Virus record (IMG/VR): IMGVR_UViG_2534681997_000004
Span: 1 to 41,177 of that record
DNA length: 41,177 nt
Strand: one strand, 5' to 3'
Source: a virus
Taxonomy: Duplodnaviria; Heunggongvirae; Uroviricota; Caudoviricetes
The first letter of the stretch is position 1. Each line of letters starts with the position of its first letter. The notes beneath the pieces are model-generated. The model was given only the letters and a program-made list of their open reading frames with translations, made no database searches and was not told the DNA's origin. The position numbers and the translations under genes were made by a program. Of this stretch, positions 1-15,311 are shown one piece after another.

Positions 1-1194
1 ATGATCACCGACACAAAGCTCAGGAAGGCGCTCGGCAAGAAAAGAGATGATATCGAGATTATTTCTGATTCGCACGGGCTCAACGCCAGAATCAGCCAAG
101 CCGGAAAAATATCATTTTTCTATCGGTATCGCTGGGCCGGTAAAGCGGTAAAACTCAATGTTGGTGATTATCCTGCAATGAGTATCACCCAGGCAAGAGA
201 GCGTCGCCAACAATTCAGAAACTGGTTAACTGAGGGACTGGATCCGCGAGAGCAGGTGAAGCTGGATAAGCAGACCCGACAGGAAGCGATGTCCGTTGCC
301 GAAGCGTTCAATTACTGGATTGAAAGGCACTGTATCGCTAACGGGCTAGTTAAAGTCGATTACTATCGCCAGGTGTTTGAGAAACATATCGCCGAACCGA
401 TGAAGAATGTCAAAGTCGATAACACAGCGAAAATGCACTGGATCAACGTCTTCGATTCTATAGAAAGCAGGGTGATGGCTCATTACATGCTTTCGCTGTG
501 CAAACGGGCGTTTAGGTTCTGCGTTAACAGAAGTGTGATCGCCTCAAACCCACTCGAGGGATTACTGCCATCTGATGTCGGGCAAAAGCCTAAAAAGAGA
601 ACTCGCAGGATGGACGATGACGATCTGCGCAAAATCTATCAGTGGTTGAAAAGCCATATGTCGATAGAGTCCGTTTTCCTGGTGAAATTTATTATGCTTA
701 CCGGATGCCGTACGGCTGAGATTCGACTTAGTGAGAGATCATGGTTTCGATTGGATGATAATGAGTGGGTCGTGCCTGCGGGCAGTTATAAAACTCGGGT
801 ACATATTAGAAGGGGACTCTCAGACGCCGCCGTTAACCTGGTCAGAAATCACCTCAAGAAAATAAACACCAATCACCTGGTGACTTCACAACGTAAAATT
901 GATGGCGGGATCAAAGATTCGCCCGTTCATTCACCTGTGGCATCCAATTACGCCCGTTCTATTTGGAATGGAACAGGTATGGCAGAGTGGTCGCTTCATG
1001 ATATGAGGCGGACGATAGCCACAAATCTCTCTGAGTTAGGTTGCCCGCCGCACGTAATTGAAAAGCTGCTCGGGCATCAGATGGTGGGGGTTATGGCGCA
1101 TTACAACCTTCATGACTATATCGATGATCAGAAACACTGGCTCCGCGTTTGGCAGAGCCATCTTGAAGAGATCATCGGAGAGCCCTTCAGTTAA
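1..1194 (+). CDS. int: Tyrosine recombinase / phage integrase (P4-like family)
   Basis: 397-aa ORF; C-terminal catalytic region with LHDMRRT (HxxR) and LGHQ...MAHY motifs typical of tyrosine integrases; ORF begins at window position 1 so the true N-terminus may lie upstream. Confidence 0.85.
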
Positions 1195-5980: not shown

Positions 5981-6331
5981 TTAATGGCTAAGGCCATGTC
6001 CTAAACCGTTTAGATAAACCTCAACCAGCAAATCTTTGGTGTAGGTACGTTCGATGCCACGGTGAAGATACAGGCGACCGCGTGCGTTAGCAGATGCGGT
6101 CCAGGTTGAGTCTTTGTGTTTTACAAGCATCCCCGGCTGAACTGCGCCGCGGTTTACTGTCTGTGTACCGTAGTGCTGATGAACCATGATGTTCTCCACT
6201 ATTGCTGAGTGAACTTCGCTGGTGGTGCCGTGACGCTGATCTTCACAGTTGAGCGTTTTAACTCTGCAATTCACCACCGCGAAGCTCACTTCTGTGTTTG
6301 CCCTTGTCGCCAGGCTGGCGGAACGTTTCAA
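5981..6331 (-). CDS. Hypothetical protein (first gene of leftward early operon; start uncertain)
   Basis: 116-aa ORF with TTG start and weak RBS; no recognisable motif. Confidence 0.3.
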   Translation of the reverse strand: MKRSASLATRANTEVSFAVVNCRVKTLNCEDQRHGTTSEVHSAIVENIMVHQHYGTQTVNRGAVQPGMLVKHKDSTWTASANARGRLYLHRGIERTYTKDLLVEVYLNGLGHGLSH

Positions 6332-6439
6332 ACCTACTGCGCGTTAATATCACCACCTCATTCCGGTTTTCGTATGCCCCGGACGGCTACTTCGTGGGCT
6401 CCATGCCTGGGTGGTTCGTGGTGCGTCTTGGTGAGTTAG

Positions 6440-6469
6440 ATTAAATCACTGGTTTATATACATGTCAAC
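6440..6469 (-). promoter_or_regulatory. Putative leftward early promoter (PL-like) with overlapping operator motif
   Basis: On minus strand TTGACA (6469..6464), 17-nt spacer, TTTAAT (6445..6440); spacer contains TAAATC-ac-TGGTTTAT, a motif that recurs in the repressor/cro intergenic region. Confidence 0.35.
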
Positions 6470-6542
6470 TTAAGGTTAGTGTTAATTGTAAATCTGAGGT
6501 TTATGTGGCTGGGTTTTGTGACACGTCTGCAGAATCGCAGGC

Positions 6543-6569
6543 AAAAAAAATCCCGACGCGTGGTCGGGA
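6543..6569 (-). terminator. Intrinsic terminator ending the repressor-side operon
   Basis: Stem TCCCGAC / GTCGGGA with 5-nt loop; read on the minus strand it is followed by an 8-nt U run. Confidence 0.6.
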
Positions 6570-6642
6570 TGAGAAGGTTCGGGGAAGGCGACAGAGTTAG
6601 TAGCTGAGAGCCTTATAACTCAGGCGTATTGACCAAATCTGA

Positions 6643-7164
6643 CTAAAAGAAGTGCATAAAAGCTTTGTACAGCCCTGTACCAATGGCGATAATCGCAGGG
6701 ACACCTAAGAGAATCGCCAATTTAGCATCAGAGATTTTCTTGTCCACTGTGTCTGATGAGGGCTTTTTGTCTACAGACTCTTTGATACTAGACAGCCTCT
6801 CCAAAACTACAGCCATATTTTTGTCCAGTGAATTCACTGTCGTATCAACTTTTGAAACTGTGTTTTTTATCTCGGCAACATCTTTCTTGATGTGGGCAAC
6901 TTCAACCTCAAGAATAGCCAATCTCTTTTCCATGTCGTCACCTCCATCTTCAGTTGACGTATGAATGATTTCAGTATCATCCATAGCAACTGATGTGACA
7001 ATCCGTTTTTGTTTATCCGAAGCGGCAAAACTACAAGCACCCATAAGGAAGGTTGCTTGGCTCGAAGCTACTGATGAAAACTCTAAGCCTACTGTAGCTC
7101 CGCTATGGTCTGAATATGCAATCAATAACTTCCCTTCACCAAGAGATGATTGAGCCGCATCCAT
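6643..7164 (-). CDS. Hypothetical coiled-coil protein with C-terminal transmembrane helix (candidate exclusion/abortive-infection effector)
   Basis: ATG at 7164 lies 3 nt after the upstream stop (coupled); AT-rich codon usage; heptad-like stretch EKRLAILEVEVAHIKKDVAEIKNTV and C-terminal AKLAILLGVPAIIAIGTGLYKAFMHFF. Confidence 0.55.
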   Translation of the reverse strand: MDAAQSSLGEGKLLIAYSDHSGATVGLEFSSVASSQATFLMGACSFAASDKQKRIVTSVAMDDTEIIHTSTEDGGDDMEKRLAILEVEVAHIKKDVAEIKNTVSKVDTTVNSLDKNMAVVLERLSSIKESVDKKPSSDTVDKKISDAKLAILLGVPAIIAIGTGLYKAFMHFF

Positions 7165-7170
7165 CAATTA

Positions 7171-7452
7171 TTATTCCTCAAACATACTTTTTAAGGATTG
7201 ATAAAAATCATAAGCCTTTTGTTTGCTTAAAGTCACAGACACAACTTTGGTTCGCTGCATGCCCTTGACGACTATATCCGCATTATCCGTACCGATGATC
7301 GGGCTGCTATTCAGGAACACAAAATTGTAAACTTCGTAACCGGCATTTTGTGTGCCGATTGTTACGACACCGTCAGCATTGGTCTCGATGAAATTTTTCG
7401 CTTCGATTACATCATTAAGATGCATAAGTTCGACGGTTGTTTCTTTAGACAC
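7171..7452 (-). CDS. Hypothetical small soluble protein (93 aa), first gene of immunity-region cassette
   Basis: GTG start at 7452 with GGAGGA RBS 5 nt upstream; AT-rich; co-oriented with and directly downstream of the repressor gene. Confidence 0.5.
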   Translation of the reverse strand: MSKETTVELMHLNDVIEAKNFIETNADGVVTIGTQNAGYEVYNFVFLNSSPIIGTDNADIVVKGMQRTKVVSVTLSKQKAYDFYQSLKSMFEE

Positions 7453-7516
7453 CGAATCCTCCAGAAGATATTAAATCTTGAAATATTTTTATTACATGGA
7501 ATTAGATACTACTGGT

Positions 7517-7906
7517 TTAGGTTTGCTCACCTTGCGATCGAATCCGACCCTTCATGTACTTCTCGTACAGCTCATCTAACTCTTTCAGGCGAAGCGCAAA
7601 AATGCGGAGCATGTTCTGCTGCTCTTCTTCCGGTAACTGGCGGTAGAGCTCGAGCAAACGCTGTTCGTCCGGTTTGAGACCGTCTTTCTCCCCAACGTCT
7701 TCACCGAGTAGCCAGGCGACAGAAATACCAACAGCGTCGGCTATGGCCAGTGCCGATTTCTTACTAATCACGCCTTTTTTGAACCAGCCGTTTACGGCCT
7801 GAGGGGTGACTCCAGCTATTCTTGCCATGTCTGCTTTGGTAACGCCGCGATCAGTGATCTCAGTAAGGCGCTCCACCAGAACGAGGTTGGGTTCTTCTTT
7901 TCTCAT
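7517..7906 (-). CDS. Phage repressor, short HTH (XRE/CI-like, RacR-like) without peptidase domain
   Basis: About 129 aa from ATG 7906; HTH region ADMARIAGVTPQAVNGWFKKGVISKKSALAIADAVGISVAWLL; divergent from a Cro-like gene. Confidence 0.7.
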   Translation of the reverse strand: MRKEEPNLVLVERLTEITDRGVTKADMARIAGVTPQAVNGWFKKGVISKKSALAIADAVGISVAWLLGEDVGEKDGLKPDEQRLLELYRQLPEEEQQNMLRIFALRLKELDELYEKYMKGRIRSQGEQT

Positions 7907-8008
7907 ATGGTCATTGTAAATATTTGGTTTATGCACGCAATAAATCCAAAGTTTGCATGAAGTATAAATCTGTGGTTTACTTCTGCTATCAATAAGCAGG
8001 AGAAGCAC
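7907..8008. promoter_or_regulatory. Divergent promoter/operator region (OR-like) between repressor and cro-like gene
   Basis: 102-bp AT-rich intergenic region with TGGTTTAT-N7-ATAAATCC (7925..7947) and ATAAATC-tg-TGGTTTAC (7964..7980) repeats. Confidence 0.5.
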
Positions 8009-8227
8009 ATGTCCGCACTCGATAAAGCAATTAAAGCCGCTGGCTCTGCCAGAAAGCTCAGCATCGCGCTTGGTGTGACGAGTATGTCTGTAAGTCATTG
8101 GAAGAATCGTGACCAAGGGATCGTCCCGCCAAGCTATATCTTCCCGATTTTCAAAATGACAGGCGTAACCCCCCACGAGCTGCGCCCTGATCTCTATCCA
8201 AATCCCACTGACGGATTACCAAAGTAG
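8009..8227 (+). CDS. Cro-like HTH regulator (YdaS-like)
   Basis: 72-aa ORF with AGGAGA RBS, divergent from repressor; HTH ARKLSIALGVTSMSVSHW. Confidence 0.6.
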   Translation: MSALDKAIKAAGSARKLSIALGVTSMSVSHWKNRDQGIVPPSYIFPIFKMTGVTPHELRPDLYPNPTDGLPK

Positions 8228-8238
8228 GAGCACTGACA

Positions 8239-8796
8239 ATGCAAACACTTTCTTTTCAACAGAATAACAGAGCGCCATCAGAGCACCTGAAATTCCAGTA
8301 TCAACACAGTGAGGCTGAAGGCCAGCCGGTCGATCACCGGGCTATCTGTTCTGCCGTCCGCGCCTGGGCGGCGGCAGAGGGCCGCGTGGCGGTCGCTCTG
8401 GCGATTAAAGAGGCTGCCGAACAGGCCGAGCTTGACAGCATTGACATGACCGGCAGCGCCGATGTGTGGAACGTGAAGCTGTTTCGCTGGCTGGACAACC
8501 ACGAGAAATCACCGGCCTACCGGGCGAACGTCGAGCAGCTGGCGCCGGTAATAATTTCGGTTCTGCCGCTGGCGTACCGGGATCGCGTGATTAAGCACGA
8601 CTGCTTTGCGGTTCGTGTCGCCAGGTCGGTGAAAGAAGACGCTGAGGCGATACAGGCTGTCGTCCTCAAAGCCCCCAGACACGAACGGATGAAGGAAATC
8701 AGCGAGAGCATCGTAGCCAAGCTCTACCTGGACGGACCTGATTCTGTGGCGCCCATTATGGCGATGGTTACAACGATGCTGGGTGGTGCGCTATGA
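8239..8796 (+). CDS. Putative CII-position regulator (YdaT-like)
   Basis: 185-aa ORF immediately after the cro-like gene with GGAG RBS; assignment by position and vague family resemblance. Confidence 0.4.
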   Translation: MQTLSFQQNNRAPSEHLKFQYQHSEAEGQPVDHRAICSAVRAWAAAEGRVAVALAIKEAAEQAELDSIDMTGSADVWNVKLFRWLDNHEKSPAYRANVEQLAPVIISVLPLAYRDRVIKHDCFAVRVARSVKEDAEAIQAVVLKAPRHERMKEISESIVAKLYLDGPDSVAPIMAMVTTMLGGAL

Positions 8797-12175: not shown

Positions 12176-12203
12176 AACCCGCTACGGCGGGTTTTCTTTT
12201 TTT
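12176..12203 (+). terminator. Intrinsic terminator
   Basis: CCCGC-tacg-GCGGG stem-loop followed by TTTTCTTTTTTT. Confidence 0.6.
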
Positions 12204-12265
12204 ACTACTGACAGAAAATTAACAATTTGTGCTCTTAAAACGTTGATCATTTCCGTGCATAGGTA

Positions 12266-12285
12266 TACTGTATAAAAACACAGTA
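12266..12285 (+). promoter_or_regulatory. LexA (SOS) box
   Basis: TACTGTATAAAAACACAGTA = CTGT-N8-ACAG palindrome, 18 nt upstream of the dinI-like start. Confidence 0.7.
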
Positions 12286-12303
12286 CATGCAATGGAGGCC
12301 ATT

Positions 12304-12537
12304 ATGAAAGTTGAATTAACCATTGATCGCATGAAAGAACTTCCTAAAGGCGCGGTACCAGCACTGGAGAAAGAATTGCTTAAGTGCCTGAATGATCACT
12401 ATGACAATTGCAGGCTCACAATCCGCCGTGCCGGGTCCGATGGGTTAAGTGTTTTCGGTGGAGACAAGGACGATAAAAAGAAAATCGAATCCATCCTCCA
12501 GGAAACCTGGGAAAGCGCTGACGACTGGTTTTATTAG
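12304..12537 (+). CDS. dinI: DinI-family DNA-damage-inducible protein
   Basis: GGAGG RBS; C-terminus ...KKKIESILQETWESADDWFY matches the DinI signature. Confidence 0.8.
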   Translation: MKVELTIDRMKELPKGAVPALEKELLKCLNDHYDNCRLTIRRAGSDGLSVFGGDKDDKKKIESILQETWESADDWFY

Positions 12538-12654
12538 AATTGCGCTTAAGGCTGGCGCGCATTTATCAGAATACCGCAATTTGCGTAACCCTCTGATGCT
12601 GCTGCCGACAATCTTTAATCGCGTCTGTTAGTCGCTCGAAGGGAGAACATAAAT

Positions 12655-12903
12655 GTGAGTGATTCAGCTTTGCAAACGTCAGATGACAACTGGTATGACA
12701 TTGTAAGAAGGTCTGACGGCTGCGTGGTGTTTAGCTTTCCTTCATCGGGCAGGCATCTAATTTATCGCGTCAATGGCATGGTTTCTATGCGGCCTTTGCT
12801 GGATGATGAAGAGGTCTTTACTCCTAATGGTTTTATGCAGTTTATTCACCGTCTCGGCTACCGGGTAACCCCACCTTCTGATAATATGAAATCAACGGTC
12901 TGA
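12655..12903 (+). CDS. Hypothetical protein
   Basis: 82 aa, GTG start with AAGGGAG RBS. Confidence 0.4.
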   Translation: MSDSALQTSDDNWYDIVRRSDGCVVFSFPSSGRHLIYRVNGMVSMRPLLDDEEVFTPNGFMQFIHRLGYRVTPPSDNMKSTV

Positions 12904-12937
12904 ACAACCGTAACCTACTGCGCCACGGAGAGAAACC

Positions 12938-13537
12938 ATGGCGCACGAACTACAACTCATCAAGCAGTCATCAGGAATCCTGATCCCCGCGACGCCGGAG
13001 ACCAGCGATATTCTGCAATCAAAAATCAAACTCGGCGCCGTGCTGGTAGCCGAATTTCGCCAGGTGAGGAATCCCGCATTCCATCGCCGTTTTTTTGCGC
13101 TCCTGAATCTCGGGTTTGAATACTGGGAACCTACTGGAGGGGCGATATCCAGCAATGAGCGTAAGCTCGTAAATGGTTATGCTAAATTCCTCGCGGCATT
13201 TGGTGGAAACGAAGGCGCACTGCTGGATGCTGCCGAGCAATATCTGGACCGCATCGCCGATAAGCGCGCCGGTAGCATCAGCATCTGCAAATCCTATGAT
13301 GCTTATCGCGCCTGGGTGATCGTCGAGTCTGGTCACTATGACGCTATTCAGCTTCCTGACGGAACACTTCGCAAACATCCCCGCAGTATTGCCTTCGCTA
13401 ACATGGACGAAACCGAGTTCCAGCAGCTGTACAAAGCCGCGCTCGATGTTCTGTGGCGATGGATACTCTCCCGATCATTTCGCAGTTGTGAAGAGGCAGA
13501 AAACGCCGCCGCCCAGCTGATGAGCTTTGCGGGGTGA
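12938..13537 (+). CDS. Nin-region protein, YbcN-like (DUF1367-like)
   Basis: 199 aa with GGAGAG RBS; position upstream of ybcO-like and rusA as in DLP12-type nin regions. Confidence 0.4.
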   Translation: MAHELQLIKQSSGILIPATPETSDILQSKIKLGAVLVAEFRQVRNPAFHRRFFALLNLGFEYWEPTGGAISSNERKLVNGYAKFLAAFGGNEGALLDAAEQYLDRIADKRAGSISICKSYDAYRAWVIVESGHYDAIQLPDGTLRKHPRSIAFANMDETEFQQLYKAALDVLWRWILSRSFRSCEEAENAAAQLMSFAG

Positions 13538-15215: not shown

Positions 15216-15235
15216 AACGCATATATTTCATGTAA
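15207..15235 (+). promoter_or_regulatory. Putative late promoter (PR'-like)
   Basis: TTGCAA-17 nt-TATATT at the 3' end of the Q-like gene, upstream of tandem terminators and the holin gene. Confidence 0.35.
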
Positions 15236-15281
15236 ATCTGATATCGTCGCCATAGCTTCGTAGGTCGACAAAGAATTAAGA

Positions 15282-15311
15282 GCCTCGCCATCGTGCGGGG
15301 CTTTTTTATTT
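15282..15311 (+). terminator. Intrinsic terminator (tR'-like, first of tandem pair)
   Basis: 7-bp stem GCCTCGC/GCGGGGC with 6-nt loop followed by TTTTTTATTT. Confidence 0.55.

Follow-up and report, generated by a model that had tools for sequence, protein, structure and literature searches.

The virus record IMGVR_UViG_2534681997_000004, whose 41,177 nucleotides (nt) make up the window analyzed here, is a lambdoid, Rac/Gifsy-like E. coli prophage with an immunity region laid out accordingly, and in that region we found four full copies of the motif TAAATC-NN-TGGTTTA that we take, with a probability of about 85%, to be the operators of the prophage immunity system. The motif can be written as a 15-bp pseudo-palindrome, TAAAYC-N3-GRTTTA (TAAATCNNTGGTTTA), and all four copies have one orientation, with one pair at the early leftward promoter and the other between the repressor and cro genes. 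Judged from sequence, they are almost certainly docking sites of a small helix-turn-helix (HTH) repressor that silences both early promoters, and the Cro-like YdaS protein encoded next to it probably reads these sites too. The switch is of a known type, in which a short repressor of the DicA/PaaR2/Gifsy kind is combined with YdaS and YdaT partners, and a literature search found no published description of the TAAATC-NN-TGGTTTA operator specificity.

Throughout the 41 kb, the 15-nt core has four matches at up to one mismatch, every one of them in the two control regions; at up to two mismatches there are six, against 0.8 expected, a number that none of 100 shuffles reached. A repeat finder grouped the four copies as a single family, spaced 47, 1428, and 48 bp apart, and the regularity of the 47- and 48-bp pair spacing had gone unnoticed in the first-pass annotation that drew attention to the motif. 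Scored with a position weight matrix (PWM) built solely from sites in other genomes, the four sites reach 23 to 26 bits, and the best position elsewhere in the window reaches 13.5 bits. The first-pass annotation had also allowed that such repeats might be no more frequent than expected from local AT-rich composition, which is excluded by regional dinucleotide shuffles of 6400-6520 and 7907-8008, where the observed count was matched in 0 of 20,000 and 1 of 20,000 cases (5e-5), respectively.

While the motif, its enrichment, and its two perfect copies (TTAAATCacTGGTTTAT at 6441-6457 and ATAAATCtgTGGTTTAC at 7964-7980, exactly where they had been placed) stand as originally reported, three further details had to be revised. 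The supposed inverse arrangement TGGTTTAT-N7-ATAAATCC (7925-7947) is a mis-parse of two copies in the same orientation: TGGTTTAT is the right half of the full copy TAAATATTTGGTTTA (7917-7931), which was overlooked because its left half reads TAAATA, and ATAAATCC is the left half of the weak copy TAAATCCAAAGTTTG (7941-7955). What had been described as a weaker copy at 6478-6494 was off by 11 bp, and the real copy at 6489-6503 has a single mismatch and is not weak. The copy proposed at 7510-7521 is only a half-site, CTGGTTTA, scoring 5.1 bits against the 23 to 26 bits of the four sites, and it is missing from relatives, whose repressor 3' ends differ.

The four 15-nt cores have been kept in places where the DNA around them has diverged. 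The same four sites occur in PHB10 and in two further E. coli prophages with different genes between the left operator (OL) and the repressor, namely fumD in one of these E. coli relatives and, in another, hicAB and yoaK together with a second HTH gene. A scan across genera, which used one genome per species and yielded 27 loci encoding repressor relatives, found repressors at 86% identity or more in prophages of Atlantibacter, Pseudocitrobacter, Enterobacter, Pseudescherichia, and Leclercia. In PHB10, the E. coli relatives, and those from the five genera, the two right operator (OR) sites always lie at +11 and +59 from the repressor ATG, and the OL pair is 46 to 47 bp apart and 1.4 to 2.4 kb from that ATG (1.4 to 2.3 kb in the five genera).

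The same layout emerged when IMG/VR was searched by motif first. The 18-mer around the promoter-proximal left site (OL1) occurred in 88 stretches, 80 of which were examined as loci, and 60 had at least 3.2 kb on the correct side. All 60 encode a repressor homologue (65 to 100% identity) on the opposite strand, 527 to 2921 bp away, and 59 of these 60 loci, retrieved by motif alone, also have the OR pair, again at 11 and 59 bp from the ATG; the OL-to-repressor distance takes about 50 different values. A distal left site with up to two mismatches was present at +45..49 in 67 of 79 IMG/VR loci. Together, the position of the sites over the inferred promoters PL, PR, and PRM and the two-plus-two layout around a variable cargo provide strong comparative support for reading them as operators.

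Further support comes from the way in which the motif changes with the protein proposed to read it. Many relatives share a near-identical C-terminal repressor domain (GEDVGEKDGLKPDEQRLLELYRQLPEEEQQNML...; about 60 residues) and differ in the N-terminal HTH head, and the other head classes show palindromes of their own at the same two OR positions (TAAGYC-N4-GCTTA, TAAA-N5-GCTTTA, and TAAAC-N4-TGTTTA), each of which reappears as a 46- to 47-bp pair at that prophage's own OL. When locus classes were set against pattern classes, the matrix was near-diagonal, with own-class matches in 11/11, 3/3, 4/4, and 6/7 loci, and the sole cross-match was that the looser class C pattern also fits 9 of the 11 class A loci. 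Motif switching with the HTH class at OL and OR together is as expected for operators and not for host-factor sites or bare promoter elements. The modularity of the repressor, with at least four head classes among loci L010-L028 compared here, implies recombination at the domain boundary within the gene, and this family may represent a natural kit of interchangeable HTH heads with at least four operator specificities, mounted on one constant C-terminal domain that could receive a shared antirepressor. The suggestion made at the outset, that a short HTH repressor acts through OL/OR-like sites flanking an immunity cassette, is thus backed by site position, conservation, layout, covariation, and the precedent of prophage CP-933P.

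PL, PR, and PRM were placed by hand from conserved -35 hexamers, geometry, and spacing (Table 1). The consensus -35 of PL, TTGACA, is kept in 10 of 11 relatives, and the assignment of this promoter is also supported by a conserved structured RNA just downstream on the same strand. The copy at 6441-6457 had been described as lying inside the spacer of the leftward promoter, which is true of 11 nt of the operator, but 4 nt fall in the -10 hexamer. The geometry of PR (a good -35, 17 nt, and then YTTAMT) is common to all four operator classes, and a Shine-Dalgarno sequence, AGGAG, follows its inferred start at 7998-8002. The -10 hexamer of PRM, TACAAT, ends 6 nt before the repressor ATG without a Shine-Dalgarno sequence upstream, and a -10-like hexamer 6 to 7 nt ahead of that ATG, likewise without a Shine-Dalgarno sequence, is found in every operator class. 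The predicted PRM start falls on the A of the ATG (7906), so the repressor mRNA would be leaderless, and probably is. The lambda cI mRNA is leaderless as well.

OL1 is the most symmetric of the copies (TAAAtCA-c-TGgTTTA). The OR3-equivalent has its center at -18 from the inferred PRM start and never has C at position 6 in relatives, which would fit a site tuned to a different affinity, although this is speculation. Exactly midway between the two strong OR sites (24 + 24 bp), centered at -42 from the inferred PRM start, lies the possible weak OR2-equivalent; it reaches two mismatches or fewer in loci L005 and L009 and in 16 of the 60 IMG/VR loci, and its left half TAAAT is kept, but some of this conservation may reflect the promoter because the site overlaps the PR -35. 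A corresponding middle site at OL (about 6465-6479), where a GGTTA-like right half is loosely kept, was ruled out as an operator by its score of -2.2 bits. We also noticed an operator-like sequence, TAAACGGCTGGTTCA, inside the repressor gene (7780-7794, minus strand; 8.7 bits). It is spelled by the recognition-helix codons (VNGWF), and in loci L011 and L024 the corresponding sequence departs from the operator consensus by at most one mismatch; it is probably a coding coincidence. In the case of RacR, one operator does extend into its own coding sequence.

Several points weigh against the operator interpretation. The middle site is weak at OR (9.3 bits) and not credible at OL, so that a lambda-like array of three sites is not established, and the strong sites are 47 to 48 bp apart; this center spacing corresponds to about 4.5 helical turns, which would put the paired sites on opposite faces of the DNA and makes simple pairwise cooperativity awkward. 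PL, PR, and PRM all went undetected in a simple sigma-70 scan of 6200-8300, which is explained by the T that PL and PR have at -11 in place of the near-universal A and by the weak -35 of PRM (3/6), and the promoters are inferred from geometry and conservation. In addition, the subgroup formed by loci L022 and L024-L026 shares the recognition helix yet has looser inner operator positions, so that one-residue-to-one-base rules are unjustified. Binding by the repressor and the Cro-like protein is proposed from sequence comparison, and covariation cannot separate the two proteins, since the Cro-like protein, constant in its C-terminal TGVTPHELRPDLYPNPTDGLP segment, also varies with operator class in its N-terminal part.

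This last point leaves room for a division of labor, in which the sites would be read by the Cro-like YdaS protein alone, or by the repressor alone, and the other regulator would act on different sequences. Since the N-terminal HTH part of the Cro-like protein follows the operator class in the same way as the head of the repressor, the comparative data do not discriminate here; but the 102-bp intergenic region shows no other repeated motif, immunity needs repressor action at PL as well as at PR, and nothing except these sites is common to both regions. Moreover, the footprints of repressor and Cro overlap on the same repeats in lambda and CP-933P (PMC8630535). We consider a division of labor unlikely and infer, by analogy, that both proteins bind the sites. 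It is still less likely that the repeats are promoter elements (an extended -10 with its flanks) or remnants of an OL/OR duplication that have been conserved as promoters. The TG and TTTA of the motif do fall on the extended -10 inferred for PL and PR, and the flanks of OL3 and OR3 are alike (26 nt at 81% identity; family D1), but the distal left site at 6489-6503 is conserved although it lies over no promoter-like -35/-10 pair, palindromic symmetry is the mark of a dimer binding site and not of a promoter, and RNA polymerase is the same in all hosts, yet the motif changes with the phage HTH class at OL and OR together.

An equally improbable reader of the sites is a host factor, for example, integration host factor (IHF), or the CII-like YdaT protein. 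OL1, in the form AATCACTGGTTTA, differs at one position from the IHF consensus WATCAANNNNTTR, and YdaT is a DNA-binding protein encoded beside cro. Against this, the other three copies have 2 to 3 mismatches each to the IHF core, and the site of a host factor would not change along with the repressor class of the phage; on the strength of this covariation, the IHF reading of OL1 was ruled out. As for YdaT, CII-type activators work at PRE-type promoters and not over PR and PL. The recognition sequence of the CP-933P YdaT protein is TTGATT-N6-AATCAA (PMC9986795), of which we found no instance near OL or OR and four matches elsewhere in the window, against 2.1 expected.

If the four sites are operators of the repressor and its Cro-like partner, a dimer of the 129-amino-acid (aa) HTH repressor would sit on each copy, and the 72-aa YdaS protein would very probably occupy the same copies. 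The inner TG and the TTTA half-site of the operator would at the same time form the extended -10 of PL (TGATTTAAT) and of PR (TGGTTTACT), and a protein bound to OL1 or OR1 would exclude RNA polymerase because the operator overlaps bases that sigma-70 needs. The site at 7917-7931, over the -10 and spacer of PRM, could serve negative autoregulation or Cro-mediated shut-off in the style of lambda OR3, while the weak site at 7941-7955, in the position of lambda OR2 relative to PRM, could activate this promoter if it is filled cooperatively. The distal left site at 6489-6503, upstream of PL and over no promoter, might stabilize binding through oligomerization or OL-OR looping, as in lambda, which is speculative. 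Cooperation between paired sites might make use of the weak middle site, of a higher oligomer like the PaaR2 octamer, or of OL-OR looping; PaaR2 is octameric, and stabilization by looping or oligomerization has been suggested for it (PMC8630535).

The repressor appears to be a non-cleavable protein and, on sequence grounds, is of the DicA/PaaR2/Gifsy kind. Its Pfam matches are to HTH families only (HTH_3, residues 21-67, E 1.6e-6), without Peptidase_S24, and since there is no S24 autocleavage domain, RecA-dependent cleavage cannot be the route of induction. It aligns nearly end to end with Qin DicA (135 aa), at 28% identity over 111 aa (pairwise E 8e-12), in an alignment that takes in the C-terminal LLEL(F/Y)..LPE.EQ motif, and a profile of the repressor family matches the PaaR2 C-terminal domain with a probability of 85% in hhalign (E 5.9e-6). 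A sequence search of the PDB returned spurious ubiquitin matches and a marginal match to the 434 repressor (E 0.08).

Elsewhere in the window, at 12180-13537, there is a Gifsy-like SOS module that opens with a terminator-like hairpin. The 82-aa open reading frame (ORF) of this module has homologues in essentially the same phages as the repressor; in mEp237, it is 96% identical and the repressor is 73% identical overall with a shared C-terminal domain. A literature search on mEp237 returned unrelated matches only, and similarity of the 82-aa ORF to the antirepressor Rem was looked for and not detected. Because of the Gifsy-like synteny and the co-occurrence with repressor homologues, we propose that this ORF probably supplies an antirepressor. 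Given that the repressor is without a cleavage domain, induction would most likely proceed via this small LexA-controlled protein (12655-12903), as in the Gifsy prophages and Qin.

Table 1. Operators, inferred promoters, and neighboring features of the immunity region and SOS module (window coordinates)
Feature	Positions	Strand	Details
Kil-like gene, first ORF of PL operon	5981-6187	minus	68 aa from ATG; phrog_294, septation-inhibiting Kil, E 2.8e-35
Inferred early leftward promoter PL	6440-6468	minus	-35 TTGACA (6463-6468), 17-nt spacer, extended -10 TGATTTAAT (6440-6448); start about 6433
OL1 (putative operator), TAAATCACTGGTTTA	6442-6456		0 mismatches; PWM 25.0 bits; identical in 10/11 class A relatives; overlaps inferred PL -10 and spacer
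Distal left site (putative operator, OL3-equivalent), TAAATCTGAGGTTTA	6489-6503		1 mismatch; 23.2 bits; 47 bp from OL1
Intrinsic terminator	6550-6570	minus	8-pair stem, then T-run; closes repressor-cargo (PRM) transcript just before OL/PL
Cargo protein, 174 aa	6643-7167	minus	phrog_12602; coiled-coil signal, weak SlyX match, hydrophobic C terminus
Cargo protein, 93 aa	7171-7452	minus	phrog_12039, function unassigned
Repressor gene, 129 aa	7517-7906	minus	ORF; N-terminal HTH_3 head, helical C-terminal domain
Inferred PRM	7913-7940	minus	-35 TTGCGT (7935-7940), 16-nt spacer, -10 TACAAT (7913-7918)
OR3-equivalent (putative operator), TAAATATTTGGTTTA	7917-7931		1 mismatch; 24.5 bits; over inferred PRM -10 and spacer
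Possible weak OR2-equivalent, TAAATCCAAAGTTTG	7941-7955		3 mismatches; 9.3 bits, rank 12 of 82,326 positions
Inferred PR	7953-7981	plus	-35 TTGCAT (7953-7958), 17-nt spacer, extended -10 TGGTTTACT (7973-7981); start about 7988
OR1-equivalent (strong putative operator), TAAATCTGTGGTTTA	7965-7979		0 mismatches; 26.0 bits, highest in window; over inferred PR spacer and -10
Cro-like gene, 72 aa, YdaS family	8009-8227	plus	Pfam YdaS_toxin E 1.4e-13; phrog_35
CII-like gene, 185 aa, YdaT family	8239-8796	plus	Pfam YdaT_toxin E 1.5e-17; phrog_163 CII-like activator E 3e-40
Perfect LexA box, TACTGTATAAAAACACAGTA	12266-12285		sequence match
DinI homologue	12304-12537		E 7e-25
Small ORF, 82 aa, GTG start	12655-12903		no Pfam family
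DUF1367 gene	12938-13537		last gene of SOS module

The immunity region itself (positions 6300-8300) is 100% identical to the chromosome of E. coli strain AR_0119, and the full stretch is present in 13 complete genomes; prophages of this type occur in 60 of 5,426 complete E. coli genomes (about 1%) and in several other Enterobacteriaceae. From the ORF list and the Pfam and PHROG profiles, the leftward-reading genes include a 979-aa RecE-type exonuclease, a YdaE-family ORF, and the Kil-like ORF, for which a 116-aa, TTG-start extension in the mechanical ORF list is probably a wrong start. Rightward, the replication O protein gene follows in series after the YdaS- and YdaT-type genes. The A-run GGCAAAAAAA that adjoins the intrinsic terminator ahead of OL is kept in relatives. 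A full-length Rfam match to the Hfq-binding small RNA isrJ was found at 15231-15304 on the plus strand (68.7 bits; gathering score 37).

A structured RNA of about 86 nt (6339-6424, minus strand) begins about 10 nt past the inferred PL start. Its fold consists of an outer helix closing two hairpins, with invariant CACGAAGUAGC and GGCAUAYGAA stretches. Over roughly its first 120 nt, the PL transcript has 96% identity to phage mEp237, where the similarity ends just short of the operators, and a 52-nt core of the leader recurs in SfV, ST64B, 118970_sal3, phiNP, and others, shortly downstream of their repressor genes. SPN3UB, Kati, and Klebsiella phages have versions downstream of the repressor gene as well, and the leader is also found in loci L035-L042 and most of L010-L028. 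In a gapless alignment of 16 sequences (SfV, ST64B, phiNP, SPN3UB, PHB10, other phages, and related prophage loci), 90% of the cells in the helices are paired and 10 of the 15 pairs are changed on both sides, giving a covariation score of 0.56 against 0.17 in shuffles, none of which (0/500) reached 0.56, and at most 0.12 in slid controls. The energy of the single-sequence fold is not unusual (z = +1.2).

A covariance model of this leader finds exactly one copy in the window and is matched in 20 of 25 other loci searched, covering all operator classes, with no copies in HK022, CP-933P, and Qin. The HK022 region expected to hold putL and putR has no BLAST or covariance-model match to the leader, and Rfam offers no family for it at gathering scores and nothing in the leader stretch at E <= 10. 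No N-like gene was found in the PL operon, which makes a cis-acting antitermination role for the leader worth testing. It is possible, though on balance doubtful, that the leader represents an undescribed class of cis-acting RNA (for instance, a put-like antiterminator or a Rho antagonist) that is common to many N-less lambdoid phages and is switched by the OL/OR operators.

For this prophage type, our analysis defines the probable operator sequence and hence the immunity specificity. One repressor scaffold with at least four DNA specificities and matched OL and OR sites helps to predict mutual exclusion among prophages, and it suggests which of them may be induced together, provided that the constant domain is the target of a shared antirepressor. 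The operator classes are also candidate orthogonal repressor/operator pairs for engineering. Our understanding of phage switches is unchanged by these results, which extend a known design.

The general arrangement is that of lambda, with repressor and cro genes that diverge from a region of about 100 bp (the 102-bp region 7907-8008 here), back-to-back PRM and PR, related pseudo-palindromes covering the two promoters, and another cluster at PL beyond the repressor operon. The centers of the right-hand sites, at -18, -42, and -66 from the inferred PRM start, match the geometry of lambda OR3, OR2, and OR1, and the cargo pair, downstream of the repressor and between it and OL, occupies the slot of lambda rexAB. 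Unlike lambda, whose repressor has a cleavable S24 domain and whose clusters consist of three adjacent sites about 23 to 24 bp center to center, this prophage has a 129-aa repressor without S24 and two strong sites per cluster, 47 to 48 bp apart; its operator sequence is unrelated to that of lambda, and it has a YdaS-type Cro and a YdaT-type CII.

Parallels are also found among prophages with short repressors. DicA is likewise short and non-cleavable and is inactivated by the small antirepressor Rem (PMC10448788), and its operators have been described between dicA and dicC and at dicBp, the analogue of PL (PMC10448788). They are, however, P22-like and different in sequence, and DicC, as compared here, does not belong to the YdaS family. 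The Gifsy-1, -2, and -3 repressors GfoR, GtgR, and GfhR are short and uncleaved and are inactivated by small LexA-controlled antirepressors that act across heteroimmune repressors (PMC3121763). Our SOS module has the Gifsy order of terminator, LexA box, dinI homologue, small GUG-start antirepressor gene, and irsA homologue (Lemire et al., PMC3121763), except that the last gene here is DUF1367, likened to the irsA homologue by position. No Gifsy records were among the tblastn matches in the phage collection, and no direct comparison with Gifsy proteins was made. The Rac-type racR-ydaS-ydaT region shares the YdaS-family Cro and YdaT-family CII downstream of PR and is set apart by its operator sequence, the RacR consensus (T/A)TAGGC-n3-GCCTA(T/A) (PMC9638921) not being matched by TAAATC-NN-TGGTTTA.

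A precedent for the arrangement is CP-933P, even though no DNA similarity to the window was detected and its PaaR2/YdaS repeats, GTTTAGTAA, differ from our motif. The cargo of CP-933P is the paaA2-parE2 toxin-antitoxin system, compared with two proteins without an assigned function here, and PaaR2 (18.5% identity overall, pairwise E 0.001) has a C-terminal domain that is probably homologous to that of our repressor and an unrelated N-terminal DNA-binding domain. The gene order is nonetheless the same, with a short repressor and its cargo divergent from ydaS-ydaT across an intergenic region of 97 bp there and 102 bp here. CP-933P DNA also has a -10 hexamer 6 nt before the repressor ATG, with the spacing seen here, and the paaR2 mRNA is leaderless by 5' RACE (PMC8630535). 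In that prophage, PaaR2 and YdaS leave footprints on overlapping repeats that extend over PRM and PR, and they also repress PL, which has the same repeats (PMC8630535), so that one repeat sequence stands at PR/PRM and again at PL beyond the cargo, just as in the layout described here.

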